From a virus: DNA of 64,000 bases. Below the pieces are notes generated by a model. The model was not told the DNA's origin. It made no database searches and saw only the letters and a list, made by a program, of their open reading frames with translations. Location of the stretch: positions 1 to 64,000 of the IMG/VR virus record IMGVR_UViG_3300049719_000183. One strand, written 5' to 3'. Positions 2,082 through 16,184 of the stretch are shown here, one piece after another (position 1 is the stretch's first letter; every line of letters begins with the position of its first letter). Made by a program: the position numbers and the translations under genes.

Positions 2082-2284
2082 TTTTGACCGTATTCTCGAT
2101 TCAAGATGTGCAAGAAAACGCGGCCTTCCTCTCGCGTGCAACTGACCTCCAAATAATCCTGACCGCTCGCCGTTTGATAGCCCGGCTTGAAACTGAAGGG
2201 GGTTCCCGCCCGTATTAGGATGGAGCAGGCGTGGGTGGTTTTCTGCCAATTTTCACCACTGGAGAGGTTGAGTGATATTTTCAT
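2078..2284 (-). CDS. hypothetical protein
   Basis: 68-aa ORF coupled by ATGA overlaps on both sides. Confidence 0.55.
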   Translation of the reverse strand: MKISLNLSSGENWQKTTHACSILIRAGTPFSFKPGYQTASGQDYLEVSCTREEGRVFLHILNREYGQK

Positions 2285-4998
2285 CGGTCGTCTATGGCCT
2301 CTAAGAACCAGCTAGGAAGGTCTCTCTTCGTGCTGTGAATGAGGCGGCTGATGTCTGAATCGATGGCGTAGGTGACGCAGGTGTCGTCTTTGGCTCGCAT
2401 GCCCCTACCGCACGTCTGGACGAAGCACTTCACGGCCTCCATGTGATACCACTCAGGATCCCGAGCCATACGGGCCTTCACTACCTGATCGCCCAGGCTG
2501 GGATATTGGCACTTCAGAACGATTTGCCAACGGCACAGATCGTAGGCGAAATCAAAGCCCTCGAACAGGCTTGGGCTGATGAGGATGCTTCCAGGTGTCT
2601 CGGCGTGGCGCTTCATCGCTTCATCCCGAGCGTCTACATTTTCTGGGTAGGCGATTCGGCCTGCAAATCCAGCCTGAATGAGACCGTGCACAACCTCGTC
2701 GGCGAAGGCGTACGAGTGGGTGTGTATGACGCCTCGATCCGTGTGATTCTGGACAATCTTGGTGATGAGGCCCATCATGCGAGGTAGCATCACGTCCCTG
2801 CTCTGCTTGGCCAGGCTGCCAGCGTTGAGAAGGTGAATGGGGCGTCTTTCCTTGGCGAAATCGCTGGGAGCCTTGTAGTGCGCCACAGAGTCGGGATGCA
2901 GGCCCATCTCATGGCAAAACACTGACTTTCTCCCGATGAAGGCACTCATGTAGATGCGTCGGGGAAAGGCGTCGAAATAGTCGTGGAAAAAGGGGCCTAC
3001 ATCGATGGGTTTGCAGAGGATGGTGAGATTCTTCGTGCGCTCGTTCACGTCGTGCCAGTACACCCAGCCGCCAGGATCCGCTTGAAGCCGCTTGTAGGCG
3101 ATGGACACCCGCTCGTACTCCTGTTTGGCCTCGAATATCTCCCGGGCGTCAGCATCCGATGAGCCGACATCCTCGGCCATCTCGATCAGCACCTTTAGAC
3201 GTTCGTAGCTCTCAGGCAGGAACGTGGCCCCGAGCCAGAAGATGAAATCATGGATGCTCGTGTTGAGCGACATCATCTCATCTGCCAGCGAGCGGTCCCT
3301 CTTGTATAACTTCTCGTAGCTCAACTCGATGCCGACAAGGGAAGTCAGGGTTTTTTCCAAATTGTGACAATTGTGAACTAGGACGCCGTTGGCGAAGTAA
3401 TTGTGGTTTCCCTCAACTTCGATATTGTAGACAAAACCGTCTGGGCACAGTCCTCCAAATGTTCCGTCACCTGACTGTTCCAAAATCTCAACACGATCCA
3501 CCCTAATTCTTTCAAACGTCGAGTCTTCCAAGAGTCCCTCGTCTTCTGTTGAAGGGTTCTGTGGCTGTTCCCGTCCACCTCTATCGCTAACTTGTACTCC
3601 ACAAGTCCAATGTCCATACGATAGCATTTCACTCGGGGCATTATTTCGGAGGGAGGGGTTTGAGCGTTCATTGGCTGCTCTTCTGGCTGAAAACCTCCCA
3701 TGCCAACCGCGAGTTCCATCTTCGGATTCAGTCCAAGGGTCTTTAACTTCTCGTACAGTTCCGTTTGCCATTTCGTTGGACCCCACCCATTGCCCCGACG
3801 CAGGGCCAATTTCTTTCCTTTCATTGAAATTTTTATCTTCTCTATGACGCCGGGTCGATGTACCGGGTTGTTCTGCCGCATGCGTTTTGAGATTTTCTTG
3901 GAATCCCGTAACTGGGTGCGCGTCATGGTTTCCGACCACACTGAAAGCGACCTGGCTCGGCAGCATTTCTCTGAACAATAAGCGTAACCGTGAGACTTGA
4001 AGCGTCCGAGCGACGACCAGGGTGGATTTCCGTACTCGCAAATAACTGGCCTTGAACAGTGCTTGCAGTTTGTTAGTGCCTGCTCTCGGTTCAATCTCCT
4101 GTGAATTTTGTAGCATTCTTCCGAGCAGCAGAAATAACCCAACCTTATGGCGTGTCTGTTTTGATAGCCCGGCTTGTGAACCGCACGGTAAGCGTATCTC
4201 CGACAAACCACGCAGCGGTAAACGATGGGTTCTGCGGTGCACATACCTACCTTCTGTGTTTTTGGCTGGGATGTAAGTATCATCTGAGAAAAATGGGTGG
4301 TTGGGTGTGCAAATTATGCAGCTTTTGTCAGAAAACACCAACCTACACAGGGCCTTAGGCTGTGACCTAAATACCTTAGTAATAGTACTTAACTCAACAT
4401 TTTTAGTGATGTGATTGAAACTATGCAGGGCGTCTCCAACGTGTAATAGATTTATAGGGGTTGTGTCTATAACTACAGTGGATGGAAAACATTCATCCAG
4501 CACCAGCACAGCCCTTGGATACATGCTCTTCACGTACGCCGCATCGGTTAGGAAATAGGCGTAGTTGGTGACACCCAAAATGCTGTTCAGGAACAGGTCC
4601 TTCTGTATTTTGTAGGCGCACTCACCCGCTTTTTTCATCGGGCACGGTTTCACAGCGAGGCCACAGAATTTGAACCTTGGGCACGGGTATTCGATGGCGC
4701 TCTTGATGAGCTGAGCGCTGAAACCTCCCACCCCGAAGCGACCCAGGTCTGTGGCAATCTGATCCTGCAGGGCCTTCTGGACCACGAGCATGTAGCCCCC
4801 GGGTTGCAGTAGCGGATCGTTTGTGGGTCCACTCAGCCACCGGCACAGCGTGGCGCCCACTGCTGTTTTGCCGAATCCTGTAGGCGCTTCGATGATGATG
4901 TCCTGGTATCCCTTCGCAAGTGCATCCTCCGTGAAGGCCAGAGCCTCCACTTGTGGCTCCCGAGGGACAGGCAGTGGGAAATAATCGAGGGCAGGCAT
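2281..4998 (-). CDS. DinG/XPD(Rad3)-family SF2 helicase precursor containing an intein
   Basis: Q motif REPQVEA, Walker A APTGFGKT, 4-Cys cluster CPRFKFC..C..C, spliced Walker B VLDECHN, EGFDF and QTCGRGMR motifs. Alternative start at 5040. Confidence 0.9.
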   Translation of the reverse strand: MPALDYFPLPVPREPQVEALAFTEDALAKGYQDIIIEAPTGFGKTAVGATLCRWLSGPTNDPLLQPGGYMLVVQKALQDQIATDLGRFGVGGFSAQLIKSAIEYPCPRFKFCGLAVKPCPMKKAGECAYKIQKDLFLNSILGVTNYAYFLTDAAYVKSMYPRAVLVLDECFPSTVVIDTTPINLLHVGDALHSFNHITKNVELSTITKVFRSQPKALCRLVFSDKSCIICTPNHPFFSDDTYIPAKNTEGRYVHRRTHRLPLRGLSEIRLPCGSQAGLSKQTRHKVGLFLLLGRMLQNSQEIEPRAGTNKLQALFKASYLRVRKSTLVVARTLQVSRLRLLFREMLPSQVAFSVVGNHDAHPVTGFQENLKTHAAEQPGTSTRRHREDKNFNERKEIGPASGQWVGSNEMANGTVREVKDPWTESEDGTRGWHGRFSARRAANERSNPSLRNNAPSEMLSYGHWTCGVQVSDRGGREQPQNPSTEDEGLLEDSTFERIRVDRVEILEQSGDGTFGGLCPDGFVYNIEVEGNHNYFANGVLVHNCHNLEKTLTSLVGIELSYEKLYKRDRSLADEMMSLNTSIHDFIFWLGATFLPESYERLKVLIEMAEDVGSSDADAREIFEAKQEYERVSIAYKRLQADPGGWVYWHDVNERTKNLTILCKPIDVGPFFHDYFDAFPRRIYMSAFIGRKSVFCHEMGLHPDSVAHYKAPSDFAKERRPIHLLNAGSLAKQSRDVMLPRMMGLITKIVQNHTDRGVIHTHSYAFADEVVHGLIQAGFAGRIAYPENVDARDEAMKRHAETPGSILISPSLFEGFDFAYDLCRWQIVLKCQYPSLGDQVVKARMARDPEWYHMEAVKCFVQTCGRGMRAKDDTCVTYAIDSDISRLIHSTKRDLPSWFLEAIDDR
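3374..3589 (-). repeat. copy 1 of a near-identical tract shared with 13956..14171 (inverted orientation)
   Basis: 3468-3589 is the reverse complement of 13956-14077 (122 bp); 3374-3444 is the reverse complement of 14101-14171 (71 bp); a 23-bp divergent patch lies between. Confidence 0.95.
3378..4244 (-). CDS. nested +1-frame endonuclease inside the intein (Cys Zn-finger repeats, NUMOD3-like segment, DUF559/Vsr-like nuclease)
   Basis: CVVC..CCSEEC and CKHC..CSEKC; RMRQNNPVHRPGVIEKI; YRMDIG..KLAIEVDGNSH..RD..LKELGWIVLRFWN. ATG 4244 follows an AAGGTAGGT RBS (alternative start 4283). Confidence 0.85.
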   Translation of the reverse strand: MCTAEPIVYRCVVCRRYAYRAVHKPGYQNRHAIRLGYFCCSEECYKIHRRLNREQALTNCKHCSRPVICEYGNPPWSSLGRFKSHGYAYCSEKCCRARSLSVWSETMTRTQLRDSKKISKRMRQNNPVHRPGVIEKIKISMKGKKLALRRGNGWGPTKWQTELYEKLKTLGLNPKMELAVGMGGFQPEEQPMNAQTPPSEIMPRVKCYRMDIGLVEYKLAIEVDGNSHRTLQQKTRDSWKTRRLKELGWIVLRFWNSQVTEHLEDCAQTVLSTISKLRETTITSPTAS

Positions 4999-5044
4999 AA
5001 AGATGTTTACAGGCTGAGTTCTTTGAAGAACTGTGCGCACCTCG

Positions 5045-12019: not shown

Positions 12020-12297
12020 GCAGAAAAGAAGCAGCCGCATTAGCCGCAATCAGGAGATCAGAGTTAAGGATCAAGTGGATAGAGATCATCAAGTCGGAGA
12101 TGGCCTCAGGTGAGTCCTCCAAAGATGCTCTTGTGGCAGCAGCCCGTGACATGCTCGATCTCCAGAAAAAGAACCCCTCAGGGGCATCCGAAGTTGGTCG
12201 TGCATGGACCGAATTTCGCATACAGATAAAGAGTTCCGTGGCACGAGGTCCTTCCGAGATGGGCACCAATTCTGACTTGGGGTCAGCGGTATCGTGA
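12016..12297 (+). CDS. hypothetical protein
   Basis: ATGA-coupled 93-aa ORF. Confidence 0.55.
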   Translation: MSRKEAAALAAIRRSELRIKWIEIIKSEMASGESSKDALVAAARDMLDLQKKNPSGASEVGRAWTEFRIQIKSSVARGPSEMGTNSDLGSAVS

Positions 12298-12309
12298 TTC
12301 TCAGGGGGT

Positions 12310-15162
12310 GTGATCACCCTCAAGGAGACTGCCACCCGTCTGATAGCTGCAGGACCGAAGGCCGAGACAAGCCTCATCATAGATCACTTTCGTTTTCAGC
12401 CTCCCGATTACTGGAGGAGCCCTCGTTATCAACTTTACAGGGAGACTGGCGGCGAACGGGGCTGGAACGGCTACGTCTACCCGGCGCAGCGCCAGAAGGA
12501 TGGTTCAGTGGTTCTCGGTCGCGGTCACAAGGACGAACTTCTGAGTTTGCTGGAGGTGGAGGGCGTTCAAGTTGATGGCGAGCGCCTCCTGGAGAGTCCA
12601 TTTCAGTCACTCACTCCAGATGACATTCCAGACGATCTCCTGCCCGGGTTCGAGCACGAGCTAACGCATGATCAGAGGGCCTGTGTCCTGACGTTGCTGA
12701 GGTACAGCTTCGGATGTGTGCGTGTGTCAGTGTCTGGAGGCAAGACGGCCATCTTTTTCGCACTGGCAGCCATGATCAAGAGCCGACACCCGAAGGCCCG
12801 TTGCCTGTATCTGGTGCCCACGGAGCGCCTGGTGAAGCAGGTGACCAAGGAGGGCCGGAAGTTTCTCCCCGACTGGCACATCACCCAATTCGGTGGTGAT
12901 GAGAAGGACAGCACGGGTGCCGATGTGGTGGTTGCCACGGTGGCGACACTCAACAAGCGCTACAAGTACCTGCTCCTCGACAACTGGTTCAAGACGTTCA
13001 TGGTGCTGCTGGTGGATGAATGTTTTCCCTGCAACACTCAGGTAAATGGACGGTGCATTTCTGACATTTTACCCGGCGATAGGGTTCCCTCCTGCAACCA
13101 CCAGACAGGTTGCATTGAATTACGCAAAGTAACGCGCATTTTTAGGTCAAAACCCTCTGCAATGTGTCGTCTTACACTATCAAATGGTAAAACCCTACTC
13201 TGCACCCCGGGACATCCCCTGTGGACGGGAACCAGGTACACACCAGCTATACTATGTTTAGGAGAGAAGATGGTGTACTTAATAAATGATAAAGAAGATA
13301 ATAGAGGGTCACTCGGAGTGTGTAGTTTGCCACGCTATGGCAGAGGTGAGATACGACAAGAAACCCTATTATCGGAGCCCCCAAGCAGTGTACGGGGGTC
13401 AGTTTGTGTGCTCCGGCGCCTGCAAACAGAAACGACGCAGAAATCTTGTGCGGAAGGCCCGGAACACATCCAGCTATGTGATAAAAAAATTGGTTGTTAT
13501 CTGCAACAACTGTGGGAAGCCTGTAAATTGTCGTGGAGGACGGTCAAAACTTCCCTACTATCAACGGTTGGGGGCTGCTCGGAAGGGGCGTGCCTATTGT
13601 TCAGAAGAATGCAAGAAAGCTTGGTCCACCTCCCGTTGGTCTTCTACTATGAGACGAACAAATATACGGGATCGTGCCATTATTTCGGCTCGAATGAAGA
13701 CAAACAACCCCTCCTCAGACCCAGAAATCTCAGCCAGAATAGGGCAAAAATTGAAGGGGCGTGCAATGGCTCTTCGTGCTGGAAATGGCTGGGGGTTCAC
13801 AAAGTGGCAACTTATTTTGAACGAAGCTCTAAAGTTGGAGAACTTATCCACAGAATTGGAGTTTCCGGTCCCATTCCATCACCACATACCTGCGGAGGGC
13901 GAGCCTCCTCCCCCAAAATGCCACATGATAGACATTGCGCTACCTCTGTTAAAGATAGCGATAGAGGTGGACGGGAACAGCCACAGAACCCTTCAACAGA
14001 AGACGAGGGACTCTTGGAAGACTCGACGTTTGAAAGAATTAGGGTGGATCGTGTTGAGATTTTGGAACAGTCAGGTGGAGCGACACACATCGCTGTGTGT
14101 CCAGACGGTTTTGTCTACAATATCGAAGTTGAGGGAAACCACAATTACTTCGCCAACGGCGTCCTAGTTCATAATTGCCACCACCTGTCATCGGGCAAGA
14201 CGTGGCAGACCATCGTTACCAGCGTACCTGCCTTTTATAGATTTGGGGCCAGTGACGGGTTGAAGAACGAGCGCAAGGACGATCTTCAATTGGGCATCAC
14301 CCTGCGTGGCTTCCTGGGTCCTGAGCGACATGAAGTGAGTCTGCTGCCACTCATCAACAACTCGCTTGTGGCGAAGCCCTACATCTATCTCGTGGATGTG
14401 CCCGAATGGAACAAGCGATTTGACGACTTACCTCACACAGCCGAGGCAGGATCCATCGCCTGGGCTGTCATCGACGGAGATTGGAAGCAGGGAACGTACA
14501 TTTGCCCTGCCTCTGACGAGGATGAGGATGGTGATGACATCCGTCGTCTAGGCTGGCAGCGTGTCATGATCGATGGCGAGGAGGTGGAGGTGGAGAGTCG
14601 TTGGTGCCTCCTCAGAAGGGCCTATGATGAAGGCATAGTTCGCTTCAAGGAGCGCAACACTTTCGTCGTGAATTGGGCGAAACACTTCTCGGACCAGGGC
14701 AAGCCCACGCTCGTGGTGGCTACCAGGACGGCTCACGTCTACATCCTGCAGACGATGATGGAGGCGGCAGGGCTGCAGCCGAAAGTGCTGACAGGCATGT
14801 CCACCTCGAAGGAGCGGGATGAGACGTTCGAGTGGCTGGTCAACACAACCGGCTCCATACTCATCAGTCCCATCGTGAAAGAAGGCGTGTCACTGCCCGA
14901 GCTGCGGGCGGGCATTGTGGCTGATCCTGTGGCCTCACCAGATCTGGCCCGTCAGATCATAGGCCGCTTCATCCGCACGAAGAAGACAGGATCCAACGAG
15001 GCCGAAGTGGTGATGTTCATCGACCGCCAGTACAAGTCGGCCAGGTATAACAGCATGGCCCTGATCAAGCAGTTGGAGAAAATACGGGGCTATAGCTTCT
15101 ACTACCCCTGCCAGGGTCCTGACAAAATCGGCCCACTTTTCGAGGCCGTGTCGATGTTCTAG
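12310..15162 (+). CDS. UvsW-like SF2 DNA helicase precursor containing an intein
   Basis: SVSGGKT, YLVPTERLVKQ, spliced LVDECHH, EGVSLP and QIIGRFIR motifs. Confidence 0.88.
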   Translation: MITLKETATRLIAAGPKAETSLIIDHFRFQPPDYWRSPRYQLYRETGGERGWNGYVYPAQRQKDGSVVLGRGHKDELLSLLEVEGVQVDGERLLESPFQSLTPDDIPDDLLPGFEHELTHDQRACVLTLLRYSFGCVRVSVSGGKTAIFFALAAMIKSRHPKARCLYLVPTERLVKQVTKEGRKFLPDWHITQFGGDEKDSTGADVVVATVATLNKRYKYLLLDNWFKTFMVLLVDECFPCNTQVNGRCISDILPGDRVPSCNHQTGCIELRKVTRIFRSKPSAMCRLTLSNGKTLLCTPGHPLWTGTRYTPAILCLGEKMVYLINDKEDNRGSLGVCSLPRYGRGEIRQETLLSEPPSSVRGSVCVLRRLQTETTQKSCAEGPEHIQLCDKKIGCYLQQLWEACKLSWRTVKTSLLSTVGGCSEGACLLFRRMQESLVHLPLVFYYETNKYTGSCHYFGSNEDKQPLLRPRNLSQNRAKIEGACNGSSCWKWLGVHKVATYFERSSKVGELIHRIGVSGPIPSPHTCGGRASSPKMPHDRHCATSVKDSDRGGREQPQNPSTEDEGLLEDSTFERIRVDRVEILEQSGGATHIAVCPDGFVYNIEVEGNHNYFANGVLVHNCHHLSSGKTWQTIVTSVPAFYRFGASDGLKNERKDDLQLGITLRGFLGPERHEVSLLPLINNSLVAKPYIYLVDVPEWNKRFDDLPHTAEAGSIAWAVIDGDWKQGTYICPASDEDEDGDDIRRLGWQRVMIDGEEVEVESRWCLLRRAYDEGIVRFKERNTFVVNWAKHFSDQGKPTLVVATRTAHVYILQTMMEAAGLQPKVLTGMSTSKERDETFEWLVNTTGSILISPIVKEGVSLPELRAGIVADPVASPDLARQIIGRFIRTKKTGSNEAEVVMFIDRQYKSARYNSMALIKQLEKIRGYSFYYPCQGPDKIGPLFEAVSMF
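13286..14167 (+). CDS. nested +1-frame endonuclease inside the intein (Zn-finger repeats, NUMOD3-like segment, DUF559/Vsr-like nuclease)
   Basis: CVVC..CSGAC and CNNC..CSEEC; RMKTNNPSSDPEISARI; MIDIA..KIAIEVDGNSH..LKELGWIVLRFWN. TATACT at 13248 and an AT-rich leader upstream. Confidence 0.85.
   Translation: MIKKIIEGHSECVVCHAMAEVRYDKKPYYRSPQAVYGGQFVCSGACKQKRRRNLVRKARNTSSYVIKKLVVICNNCGKPVNCRGGRSKLPYYQRLGAARKGRAYCSEECKKAWSTSRWSSTMRRTNIRDRAIISARMKTNNPSSDPEISARIGQKLKGRAMALRAGNGWGFTKWQLILNEALKLENLSTELEFPVPFHHHIPAEGEPPPPKCHMIDIALPLLKIAIEVDGNSHRTLQQKTRDSWKTRRLKELGWIVLRFWNSQVERHTSLCVQTVLSTISKLRETTITSPTAS
13956..14171 (+). repeat. copy 2 of the shared intein 3' tract
   Basis: See 3374..3589. Confidence 0.95.
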
Positions 15163-15250
15163 TTAGACTGCGCCACACCCATAGGACAATAGGGATAGCC
15201 CCATGAGCACCCGTCCACACGTCAGTAGCGAACCGGCGCACCTAGTAACG

Positions 15251-15320
15251 GCCCGGCAGGAGGCGGGACTGGTGGACAGCCACATCAGCTCGAAAGTCAC
15301 AATCCTCCTGCCGGGTTTCT
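15251..15320 (+). other. long-loop hairpin (possible leader RNA or attenuator)
   Basis: CCCGGCAGGAGG (15252-63) pairs with CCTCCTGCCGGG (15304-15), followed by TTTCTT. Confidence 0.5.
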
Positions 15321-15359
15321 TGCTGTTCTGGGAGTGGCAATGCCAAAACGTAAGACACT

Positions 15360-16184
<825 letters not shown>

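Follow-up and report, generated by a model that had tools for sequence, protein, structure and literature searches.

The textbook intein is a single in-frame protein with a homing endonuclease domain of its own. An out-of-frame or antisense intein endonuclease was described by Gorbalenya in 1998, as cited by later work. Actinobacteriophage inteins include antisense LAGLIDADG, antisense VSR-like and frame-3 endonuclease VII-like endonucleases (Gosselin, Arsenault and Gogarten, bioRxiv 10.1101/2025.01.02.630785); their hosts, in the available text of that preprint, are DNA polymerase, minor capsid, terminase and thymidylate synthase, with no helicase among them. A +2 LAGLIDADG endonuclease with the same selection signature occurs in cyanobacterial dnaX (Phillips, DeSimone and Gogarten, bioRxiv 10.64898/2026.09.14.751524). 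The "fractured genes" hold Vsr-like free-standing endonucleases between split-intein halves, with a 3' overlap of 6-69 bp (Dassa et al. 2009, PMC2677866). I-Bth0305I, encoded in a group I intron of recA, is the prototype of the EDxHD homing endonucleases (Taylor et al. 2011, PMC3239194; PDB 3r3p), and the "hidden HNH" insertion of ShiLan was described in phage methylases (Arsenault et al. 2025, PMC11855218). The subject of this report is an intein in a superfamily 2 (SF2) helicase gene that is overlapped, on the same strand and in the +1 frame, by the open reading frame (ORF) of a Vsr-like endonuclease. It lies in a 64,000-nucleotide (nt) stretch of viral DNA, the window, which is positions 1 to 64,000 of the 72.5-kb IMG/VR virus record IMGVR_UViG_3300049719_000183; the same stretch is also present in peat metagenomes. 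The window has two such elements, copy 2, described here, and copy 1, in another helicase gene.

The best explanation of the locus, with a probability of about 0.85, is a composite selfish element made of a helicase intein and a separately translated +1 Vsr-like homing endonuclease, encoded by two overlapping genes on one strand. The evidence comes from the anatomy of the two frames, the selection acting on them, their predicted folds, the conservation of the layout across a family, and allele polymorphism in related phages.

Anatomy of the element

The original prediction, made from the letters alone, had placed a 385-amino-acid (aa) intein at 13021..14175 and a nested +1 ORF at 13286..14167 whose TAG ends 8 nt before the intein end. 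These coordinates and frames proved right. The features of copy 2, with confidence given as pLDDT, the local distance difference test as predicted by AlphaFold2, are:

12310..15162, + strand: SF2 helicase, a 950-aa ORF with ResIII/DEAD and Helicase_C domains (Pfam)
12310..13020, + strand: N-extein of the SF2 helicase (ResIII/DEAD; PF04851 E 1.5e-13, PF00270 E 5.7e-9), its C-terminal end being motif II, LLVDE
13021..14175, + strand: class-1 intein, 1155 nt, 385 aa, in the helicase frame (frame 0); PF14890 E 5.9e-11
13021..13290, + strand: N-terminal Hint splicing domain, intein residues 1-90, beta strands, pLDDT 86-98
13280..13285, + strand: TAA TAA, +1-frame stops that abut the endonuclease ATG; the +1 frame opens only here
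13286..14167, + strand: homing-endonuclease ORF in the +1 frame, 293 aa, predicted from PF04480 (E 5.3e-10) and the fold model to have a Cys-rich N-terminal DNA-binding region and a C-terminal Vsr-like/DUF559 nuclease
13291..14025, + strand: frame-0 linker, intein residues 91-335, open, not conserved (20% identity between copies), no confident fold (pLDDT 40-60)
14026..14164, + strand: dual-coding stretch of ~46 codons, the endonuclease L..GW.VLRF.N motif and C-terminal helix (+1) over the C-terminal splicing strands of the intein (frame 0), both confidently modelled
14026..14175, + strand: C-terminal Hint splicing domain, intein residues 336-385, blocks F/G by alignment, last residues VHN, pLDDT 72-98
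14176..15162, + strand: C-extein of the helicase, first residues CHHLSS, Helicase_C (ORF and Pfam)

The intein interrupts the helicase inside motif II, at DE^CH. It begins with Cys (CFPCNT...) and ends in VLVHN, and the +1 residue of the extein is Cys. The PF14890 score is 42.8 bits against a cut-off of 35.8, and among 53 aligned relatives C1, H65 and N385 are invariant while T62 and H384 are nearly so. The sequence features and predicted fold of a class-1 intein are all present, namely a Cys nucleophile, T62-P-G-H65 (the TxxH of inteins, block B), His-Asn followed by an extein Cys, the profile match and a predicted Hint fold. AlphaFold2, run on the intein frame with the 53-sequence alignment, gave a confident, beta-rich structure (pLDDT 72-98) only for residues 1-90 and 336-385. 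Searches with Pfam and PHROGs found no endonuclease family in frame 0, DUF559 being matched in the +1 frame only, and the intein is thus not a canonical bifunctional one with its endonuclease in frame. Nor is it a split intein in a fractured gene, because frame 0 is unbroken from 12310 to 15162, with no N-intein stop, spacer and C-intein start. The G+C content is ~0.49 in the intein vs 0.56-0.60 in the exteins. The name "UvsW-like", given earlier to the host at 12310..15162, is a mere label, Pfam giving ResIII/DEAD and Helicase_C.

Two side observations were made. The copy-2 insertion flanks (13006..13020 and 14176..14184) end in ...GTGGATGAA and begin with TGCCAC..., and GTGG/CCAC would form an imperfect palindrome in an intein-less allele; speculatively, it resembles the pseudopalindromic site of I-Bth0305I. 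In 13261..13273 an AGGAG is followed after 5 nt by a frame-0 ATG (13271), and an internal start there would give a product of linker, C-intein and C-extein, like the C-half of a split intein.

The nuclease assignment of the +1 product is consistent at the levels of profile and fold. DUF559 makes up the C-terminal third, with PF04480 scores of 39.6 bits in copy 2 and 44.5 bits in copy 1 (Pfam gathering cut-off 20.6), and a profile of six endonuclease sequences matches PDB 3hrl with an E-value of 4.3e-11. Across 60 endonuclease sequences D216, D229, H233 and D242 are invariant and E227 is nearly so. The AlphaFold2 model built on that 60-sequence alignment has a mean pLDDT of 82.8, and its best PDB folds in Foldseek are the DUF559 endonuclease-like 3hrl (template modelling score 0.73 on target), the I-Bth0305I catalytic domain 3r3p (0.68-0.71) and Vsr, 1cw0. 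E227, D229, H233 and D242 fit the EDxHD composite motif, as a composite and not as a residue-by-residue map to I-Bth0305I, of which 3r3p is the second-best fold match. That link is one of fold, 3r3p being missing from the sequence and profile matches. The Cys-rich N-terminal half has a weak match to a MYM/FCS zinc finger (2das, E 0.012) and is similar to part of a phage HNH endonuclease PHROG, as expected of a shared DNA-binding module. In the dual-coding stretch 14026..14164 the GW.VLRF.N motif probably sets the sequence of the first half and intein blocks F/G that of the second, so far as the conserved motifs can tell. By the models, the family thus includes a stretch of DNA that would code for two folded proteins at once.

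Two open frames and selection on one of them

Copy 1 lies on the opposite strand of the window and has the same organisation:

2281..5040, - strand: host helicase of DinG/XPD type (Helicase_C_2, Pfam)
3370..4491, - strand: intein, 374 aa, VLVLDE^...VHN^CHN (sequence)
3378..4283, - strand: +1-frame endonuclease ORF, 301 aa if read from the first ATG (Pfam)

Its endonuclease stop likewise falls 8 nt before the intein end. An alternative start, ATG 4244, has an AAGGT-like motif just upstream and would give 288 aa.

Across the endonuclease ORF there are no stops in frames 0 and +1 of either copy, and the third frame has 24 in copy 2 and 21 in copy 1. Synonymous codons of each endonuclease were resampled with the codon usage of the window, 5000 times. 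The intein frame was expected to meet 12.4 stops in copy 2 and 11.5 in copy 1, and a stop-free frame was obtained in 0 of 5000 resamplings (Poisson P0 ~4e-6 and ~1e-5). Frame-0 openness is therefore far beyond chance. These numbers agree with the original prediction, which had held that an unselected frame would soon meet stops and that both frames stay open in the two copies even though the 5' three quarters have diverged. Measured upstream of the last 220 nt, the nucleotide identity of the copies is ~50%. The way in which the frame is kept open is simple. A codon-final T before AA/AG/GA codons is absent in both copies (0/72 and 0/74), vs 63/220 and 51/226 T third bases elsewhere. Openness of frame 0 costs the endonuclease no amino acids, because a frame-0 stop needs a T-ending codon before an AA/AG/GA codon.

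Selection was examined by comparing the two copies over 209 aligned codons upstream of a near-identical 3' module:

Endonuclease (+1) frame: 43% identity, BLOSUM sum 426
Intein frame (0): 20% identity, BLOSUM sum 43
Third frame: 20.5% identity, BLOSUM sum -66

Nucleotide identity at the three endonuclease codon positions is 52/58/34%. Closer pairs from IMG/VR gave the same picture:

L041/L052: differences by endonuclease codon position 5/4/32; aa changes 7/169 in the endonuclease and 35/168 in the intein frame
L018/L019: differences 11/16/43; aa changes 27 in the endonuclease and 54 in the intein frame
L022/L052: differences 33/31/96; aa changes 44 in the endonuclease and 113 in the intein frame

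Frame 0 and the third frame change at the same pace in close pairs (35 vs 37 and 54 vs 54). Across the linker, purifying selection is thus seen in the endonuclease frame only; the intein frame that it overlaps evolves like a stop-avoiding non-coding frame. As predicted from the sequence, the mid-region similarity of the copies is limited to the +1 frame, and the quoted motifs, such as AYCSE.C and NNP, were found in the BLASTP alignment. Equal conservation of both frames, named beforehand as the outcome that would speak against the prediction, was not seen in the per-frame alignment, and the related pairs agree.

Distribution of the overlapped layout

In IMG/VR 186 pattern hits were obtained; 124 of them were confirmed, and the 80 best of these were retained. 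The +1 layout was found in 77 of these 80 loci; there the endonuclease is +1 relative to a frame that has no stop across the match and forms part of a long ORF (L016 and L080, among the 77, are cut by the contig end). The other three, L014, L024 and L039, have a free-standing homologue directly upstream of an intein-less SF2 helicase gene and overlapping its start. Among the 80 loci the endonuclease was in the +2 frame in none and in frame at both ends in none. In GTDB, 80 of 85 confirmed loci were kept. Twenty-three were family-level matches, 20 with the +1 layout and 3 without, and the remaining 57 matched the nuclease core alone and are ordinary DUF559 genes that are not nested. A tblastn search of GenBank phages with the endonuclease gave 40 records. 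Four cultured phages were examined (Vibrio phage CP-T1, Corynebacterium phage phi673, Pseudomonas phage MR14 and Vibrio phage 1.088.O), and in all four the match is +1 to the annotated helicase coding sequence, with both frames open and 15-24 stops in the third. The endonuclease gene is annotated in none of the four records.

Host ORFs were searched against Pfam, 54 together and 5 proteins separately (L068 in both), the near-duplicates L019, L029, L052, L054 and L069 being left out. Among the 54, Helicase_C was found in 48, Intein_splicing in 48 and ResIII in 44. Other hosts are SNF2 helicases, a terminase large subunit and a helicase-methylase. The insertion point across the IMG/VR loci is nearly always DE^C(H). 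Homologues of similar length numbered 96 among 5.8 billion protein clusters, mostly on ~1-kb contigs, which fits a gene usually missed by gene callers. The protein collection holds one 167-aa fragment (P0003) from the contig of this genome, which matches copy 2 with 59% identity across 54% of the query; it probably stems from an incomplete gene call in copy 1, and copy 2 is not called at all.

Some loci depart from the usual arrangement in other ways. In L025 (2314-4577), one of the 77, the N-extein, N-intein and endonuclease are in one ORF and only the C-intein and C-extein are in another frame, either through an indel or as a split-intein-like intermediate. The intein-less helicase of L014 (3554-5084), beside its free-standing endonuclease homologue, is frameshifted exactly at motif II, one ORF ending ...IIIDERTP... 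and the next frame reading ...NGHHAAAP...; a sequencing error, a scar from repair at the cleavage site or a genuine shift would each account for it. Some hosts have a further LAGLIDADG intein, a canonical one, at a different site, as in L089 (301-3432, P-loop GGGK^C) and L086 (780-5639), so that phage helicases can hold several inteins of different architecture.

Mobility and the relation of the two copies

Three alleles were verified at the same site in Vibrio phages with helicase genes ~80% identical to the 1.088.O gene:

L087: empty allele, FQDEAHH
L088 and L089: mini-intein, 149 aa, no long alternative ORF
L006: full overprinted element; at least 80% of its gene is covered in 24 further records

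The presence of empty, mini and full alleles in related phages indicates, from allele comparison, that the element is probably mobile. The empty allele of L087 reads DEAHH and L006 and L088 read DE-[intein]-CHH, Ala being replaced by the Cys that splicing requires. This replacement at the intein-bearing site implies that the flank was co-converted on invasion. Intein-less close relatives of the window helicase were not found in IMG/VR with single-sequence patterns (160 pattern hits, 0 confirmed), and the presence/absence polymorphism is thus known from the Vibrio phage clade alone.

The two copies in the window are related in two ways. Their mid-regions are old sisters in the endonuclease tree (support 100/88, 60 rows), the next relative being L007, whose host is a homologue of the copy-2 helicase. 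Of the 15 nt preceding the insertion point, 13 are identical between the copies. These data suggest that the element jumped long ago from one helicase gene to the other, possibly by way of similar motif II DNA. No third copy of the element was found in the 72.5-kb record. Their 3' ends are nearly the same:

13956..14175, + strand: 3' module, 205/220 nt identical between the copies (pairwise comparison)
14078..14100, + strand: 23-nt divergent patch within the module (pairwise comparison)

The module consists of a 122-nt perfect run, the 23-nt patch and 75 nt with one mismatch. The pattern points to a probable recent gene conversion of the nuclease-core/C-intein module between the copies. A contig from peat run X3 has the copy-1 version of the 14078..14100 patch followed by the copy-2 C-extein, which is either a gene-conversion polymorphism or an assembly chimera across identical flanks. 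In view of the second possibility the contig was not taken as proof of ongoing gene conversion.

Translation of the endonuclease

The endonuclease is probably made separately, by internal initiation at ATG 13286. Across the family the first conserved CxxC lies, by the median, 15 codons downstream of the point where the +1 frame opens, and there is usually an ATG in that interval. Of 64 unique loci, 23 have a candidate start with a 5-nt Shine-Dalgarno core before it, vs a fraction of 0.19 at matched random positions. The copy-2 ATG lies in an AT-rich stretch and is unpaired in the minimum-energy fold. The free-standing homologues have clear ribosome-binding sites.

Model and alternative explanations

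The composite element would work as follows. The first gene would be a class-1 intein translated within the helicase, its Hint halves (~90 aa and ~50 aa) joined by an unstructured linker of ~245 aa, and after translation it would excise itself and rejoin the helicase at motif II (DE-C-HH). The second would be a free-standing-type Vsr-like (EDxHD/DUF559) endonuclease gene laid over the linker and running ~46 codons into the C-terminal splicing domain. Its product would cut intein-less helicase alleles near motif II, and repair would copy the whole element in. Selection would act on the endonuclease, and the sole demand on the intein frame of the linker would be that it has no stop, a demand that synonymous choice alone can meet because the endonuclease is in the +1 frame. 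The layout is probably locked by the shared 3' stretch, which encodes a folded part of each protein: a simple indel that put the endonuclease in frame would ruin one product or the other.

Several observations weigh against this model. The Shine-Dalgarno enrichment in the family is only about twofold, and in copy 2 the signal is weak, with AGGAG 20 nt upstream of the ATG and only GGTG at a usable distance. The original prediction had also proposed an internal promoter with TATACT; the hexamer is present at 13248..13253, but a consensus scan of 12200..15400 found no sigma-70-like promoter on the + strand (the consensus may not be that of the host). The RNA around the starts has no significant structure (z -0.98 in copy 2 and -0.27 in copy 1), and the promoter proposal gained no support. 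A metatranscriptome contig, X23 (14048..14219, 3 differences), gives no evidence of transcription or translation of the endonuclease. Foldseek matches the nuclease domain at modest E-values (7.5e-3 to 8e-2), because the match spans only ~100 residues. A search for fused proteins of 514-2000 aa returned none at E <= 1e-5, and is weak evidence.

A sequencing or assembly frameshift, behind which the intein would really be canonical with its endonuclease in frame, is next to impossible. A single indel could mimic the picture in one contig, and in L025 the N-extein and N-intein do lie in the endonuclease frame. However, contigs of three other peat runs are free of indels over 12900..13212, 13327..13477, 13430..13580, 13493..14060, 13780..13977 and 13876..14077, and independent peat assemblies gave pieces identical to the window over 13327..13477, 13493..14060 and 13876..14077. 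The same +1 offset recurs in 77/80 IMG/VR loci, 20/23 GTDB loci, 4/4 cultured phages and both window copies, the stop-free frame 0 is itself kept by selection, and each case would need two compensating errors because the endonuclease overlaps the C-terminal splicing blocks out of frame. With these counts and contigs the claim of a conserved element family, and not a sequencing frameshift, is upheld. Programmed +1 ribosomal frameshifting from the intein frame, by which the endonuclease would be made only as a fusion to the N-extein and N-intein with no translation of its own, is distinctly improbable. It would account for the want of a well-placed Shine-Dalgarno sequence in copy 2, L025 shows that a fused N-intein-endonuclease ORF can exist, and an internal start would have to compete with ribosomes on the helicase. 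On the other hand, the +1-frame TAA TAA abuts the ATG, the frame opens shortly before the CxxC, usually with an ATG and with enriched Shine-Dalgarno cores, no slippery or stop-stimulated site was noticed by eye in 13286..13320, and the free-standing homologues of L014, L024 and L039 have starts of their own.

The +1 ORF of this genome might also be an inactive relic, or be domesticated, for example for recombination or for the exclusion of competing phages, and no longer drive homing. This is unlikely. The family-invariant residues are all intact in both copies, in related pairs the +1 frame is under strong purifying selection, a related clade of phages has the empty, mini and full alleles side by side, and the 3' modules of the two copies were recently homogenised. 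What speaks for a relic is that the copies are old (41% mid-region identity, long branches), that no intein-less close relative of the window helicase was found in the IMG/VR search, and that homing endonucleases are expected to decay after fixation. Very improbable is a function of the frame-0 linker itself, such as a regulatory or binding domain, with both frames selected as protein over the whole ORF. AlphaFold2 draws some helices at intein residues 128-201, but with a pLDDT of only 47-60. Pfam and PHROGs have no match there, and frame 0 is no better conserved than the third frame, either between the copies (20% vs 20.5%) or in close pairs.

Within the preferred reading of a composite element, a further step is taken tentatively, at somewhat under even odds. 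The +1 overprint may be a locked architecture of single origin and not a transient accident, the composite having since hopped via shared motif II DNA among helicase types, a terminase, SNF2 and a helicase-methylase, including between the two helicases of this genome.

Comparison with known systems

In the available text of the published cases, out-of-frame intein endonucleases have the same plan as here: extein-frame splicing domains surround a region without a fold, and a folded endonuclease lies in an overlapping frame. The signature of selection is also alike, purifying in the frame of the endonuclease and relaxed in that of the intein, and independent translation has been proposed for them. 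Unlike those inteins, the present one has a Vsr-like endonuclease on the same strand, in the +1 frame, at motif II of an SF2 helicase. The published cases are rarities, whereas within this family the overlapped layout is not rare (~97/103 surveyed loci). About a hundred loci use it almost without exception, in uncultured viruses, in bacterial and archaeal assemblies and in cultured Vibrio, Pseudomonas and Corynebacterium phages. Because the gene is unannotated in the four phage records and sparse in protein databases, surveys that call such inteins "decaying" or "mini" miss endonuclease genes that are predicted to be active. The family is a clear case from nature of overprinting that obeys a simple rule, no T before AA/AG/GA codons, and the Vibrio lentus phages, with full, mini and empty alleles, offer cultivable systems.

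The fractured genes (PMC2677866) share with this element a Vsr-like endonuclease, location on one strand, hosts in phage DNA metabolism and an endonuclease 3' end that overlaps the C-intein start out of frame. The overlap is 6-69 bp there vs ~140 nt here. In the fractured genes a stop closes the N-intein ORF and a spacer of 27-51 nt follows, the host gene is broken and splicing is in trans; here the intein is contiguous, with frame 0 uninterrupted. The published model, in the available text, has no out-of-frame contiguous state. If the layout does have a single origin and is locked, the family would be that missing contiguous state, linking mini-inteins, free-standing Vsr-like endonucleases beside helicases and fractured genes, and an intein could keep its endonuclease under separate translational control. 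The family connects contiguous inteins with the split-intein fractured genes, a source of widely used protein-engineering tools.

I-Bth0305I (PMC3239194), as far as its available description goes, resembles the +1 product in having a C-terminal Vsr-like nuclease with conserved E/D/H/D and a modular N-terminal DNA-binding region. The N-terminal region is Cys-rich here vs a NUMOD-2 pair there, and sequence searches gave no direct link between the two. The ShiLan element (PMC11855218) is alike in that an out-of-frame endonuclease lies within an insertion open in the host frame. In the available text it has no splicing domains and its insertion is thought to be retained as a loop, whereas here a complete intein would remove the insert. 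Full-text searches of the literature turned up neither a contiguous helicase intein with a same-strand +1 Vsr-like endonuclease nor a family with the overlapped layout as its rule; this absence is provisional, as supplements (which may list more VSR-like cases) and subscription journals were outside the scope. Out-of-frame intein endonucleases are already known, and the same-strand +1 Vsr-like form in helicase inteins is a new form of them and not a new category.

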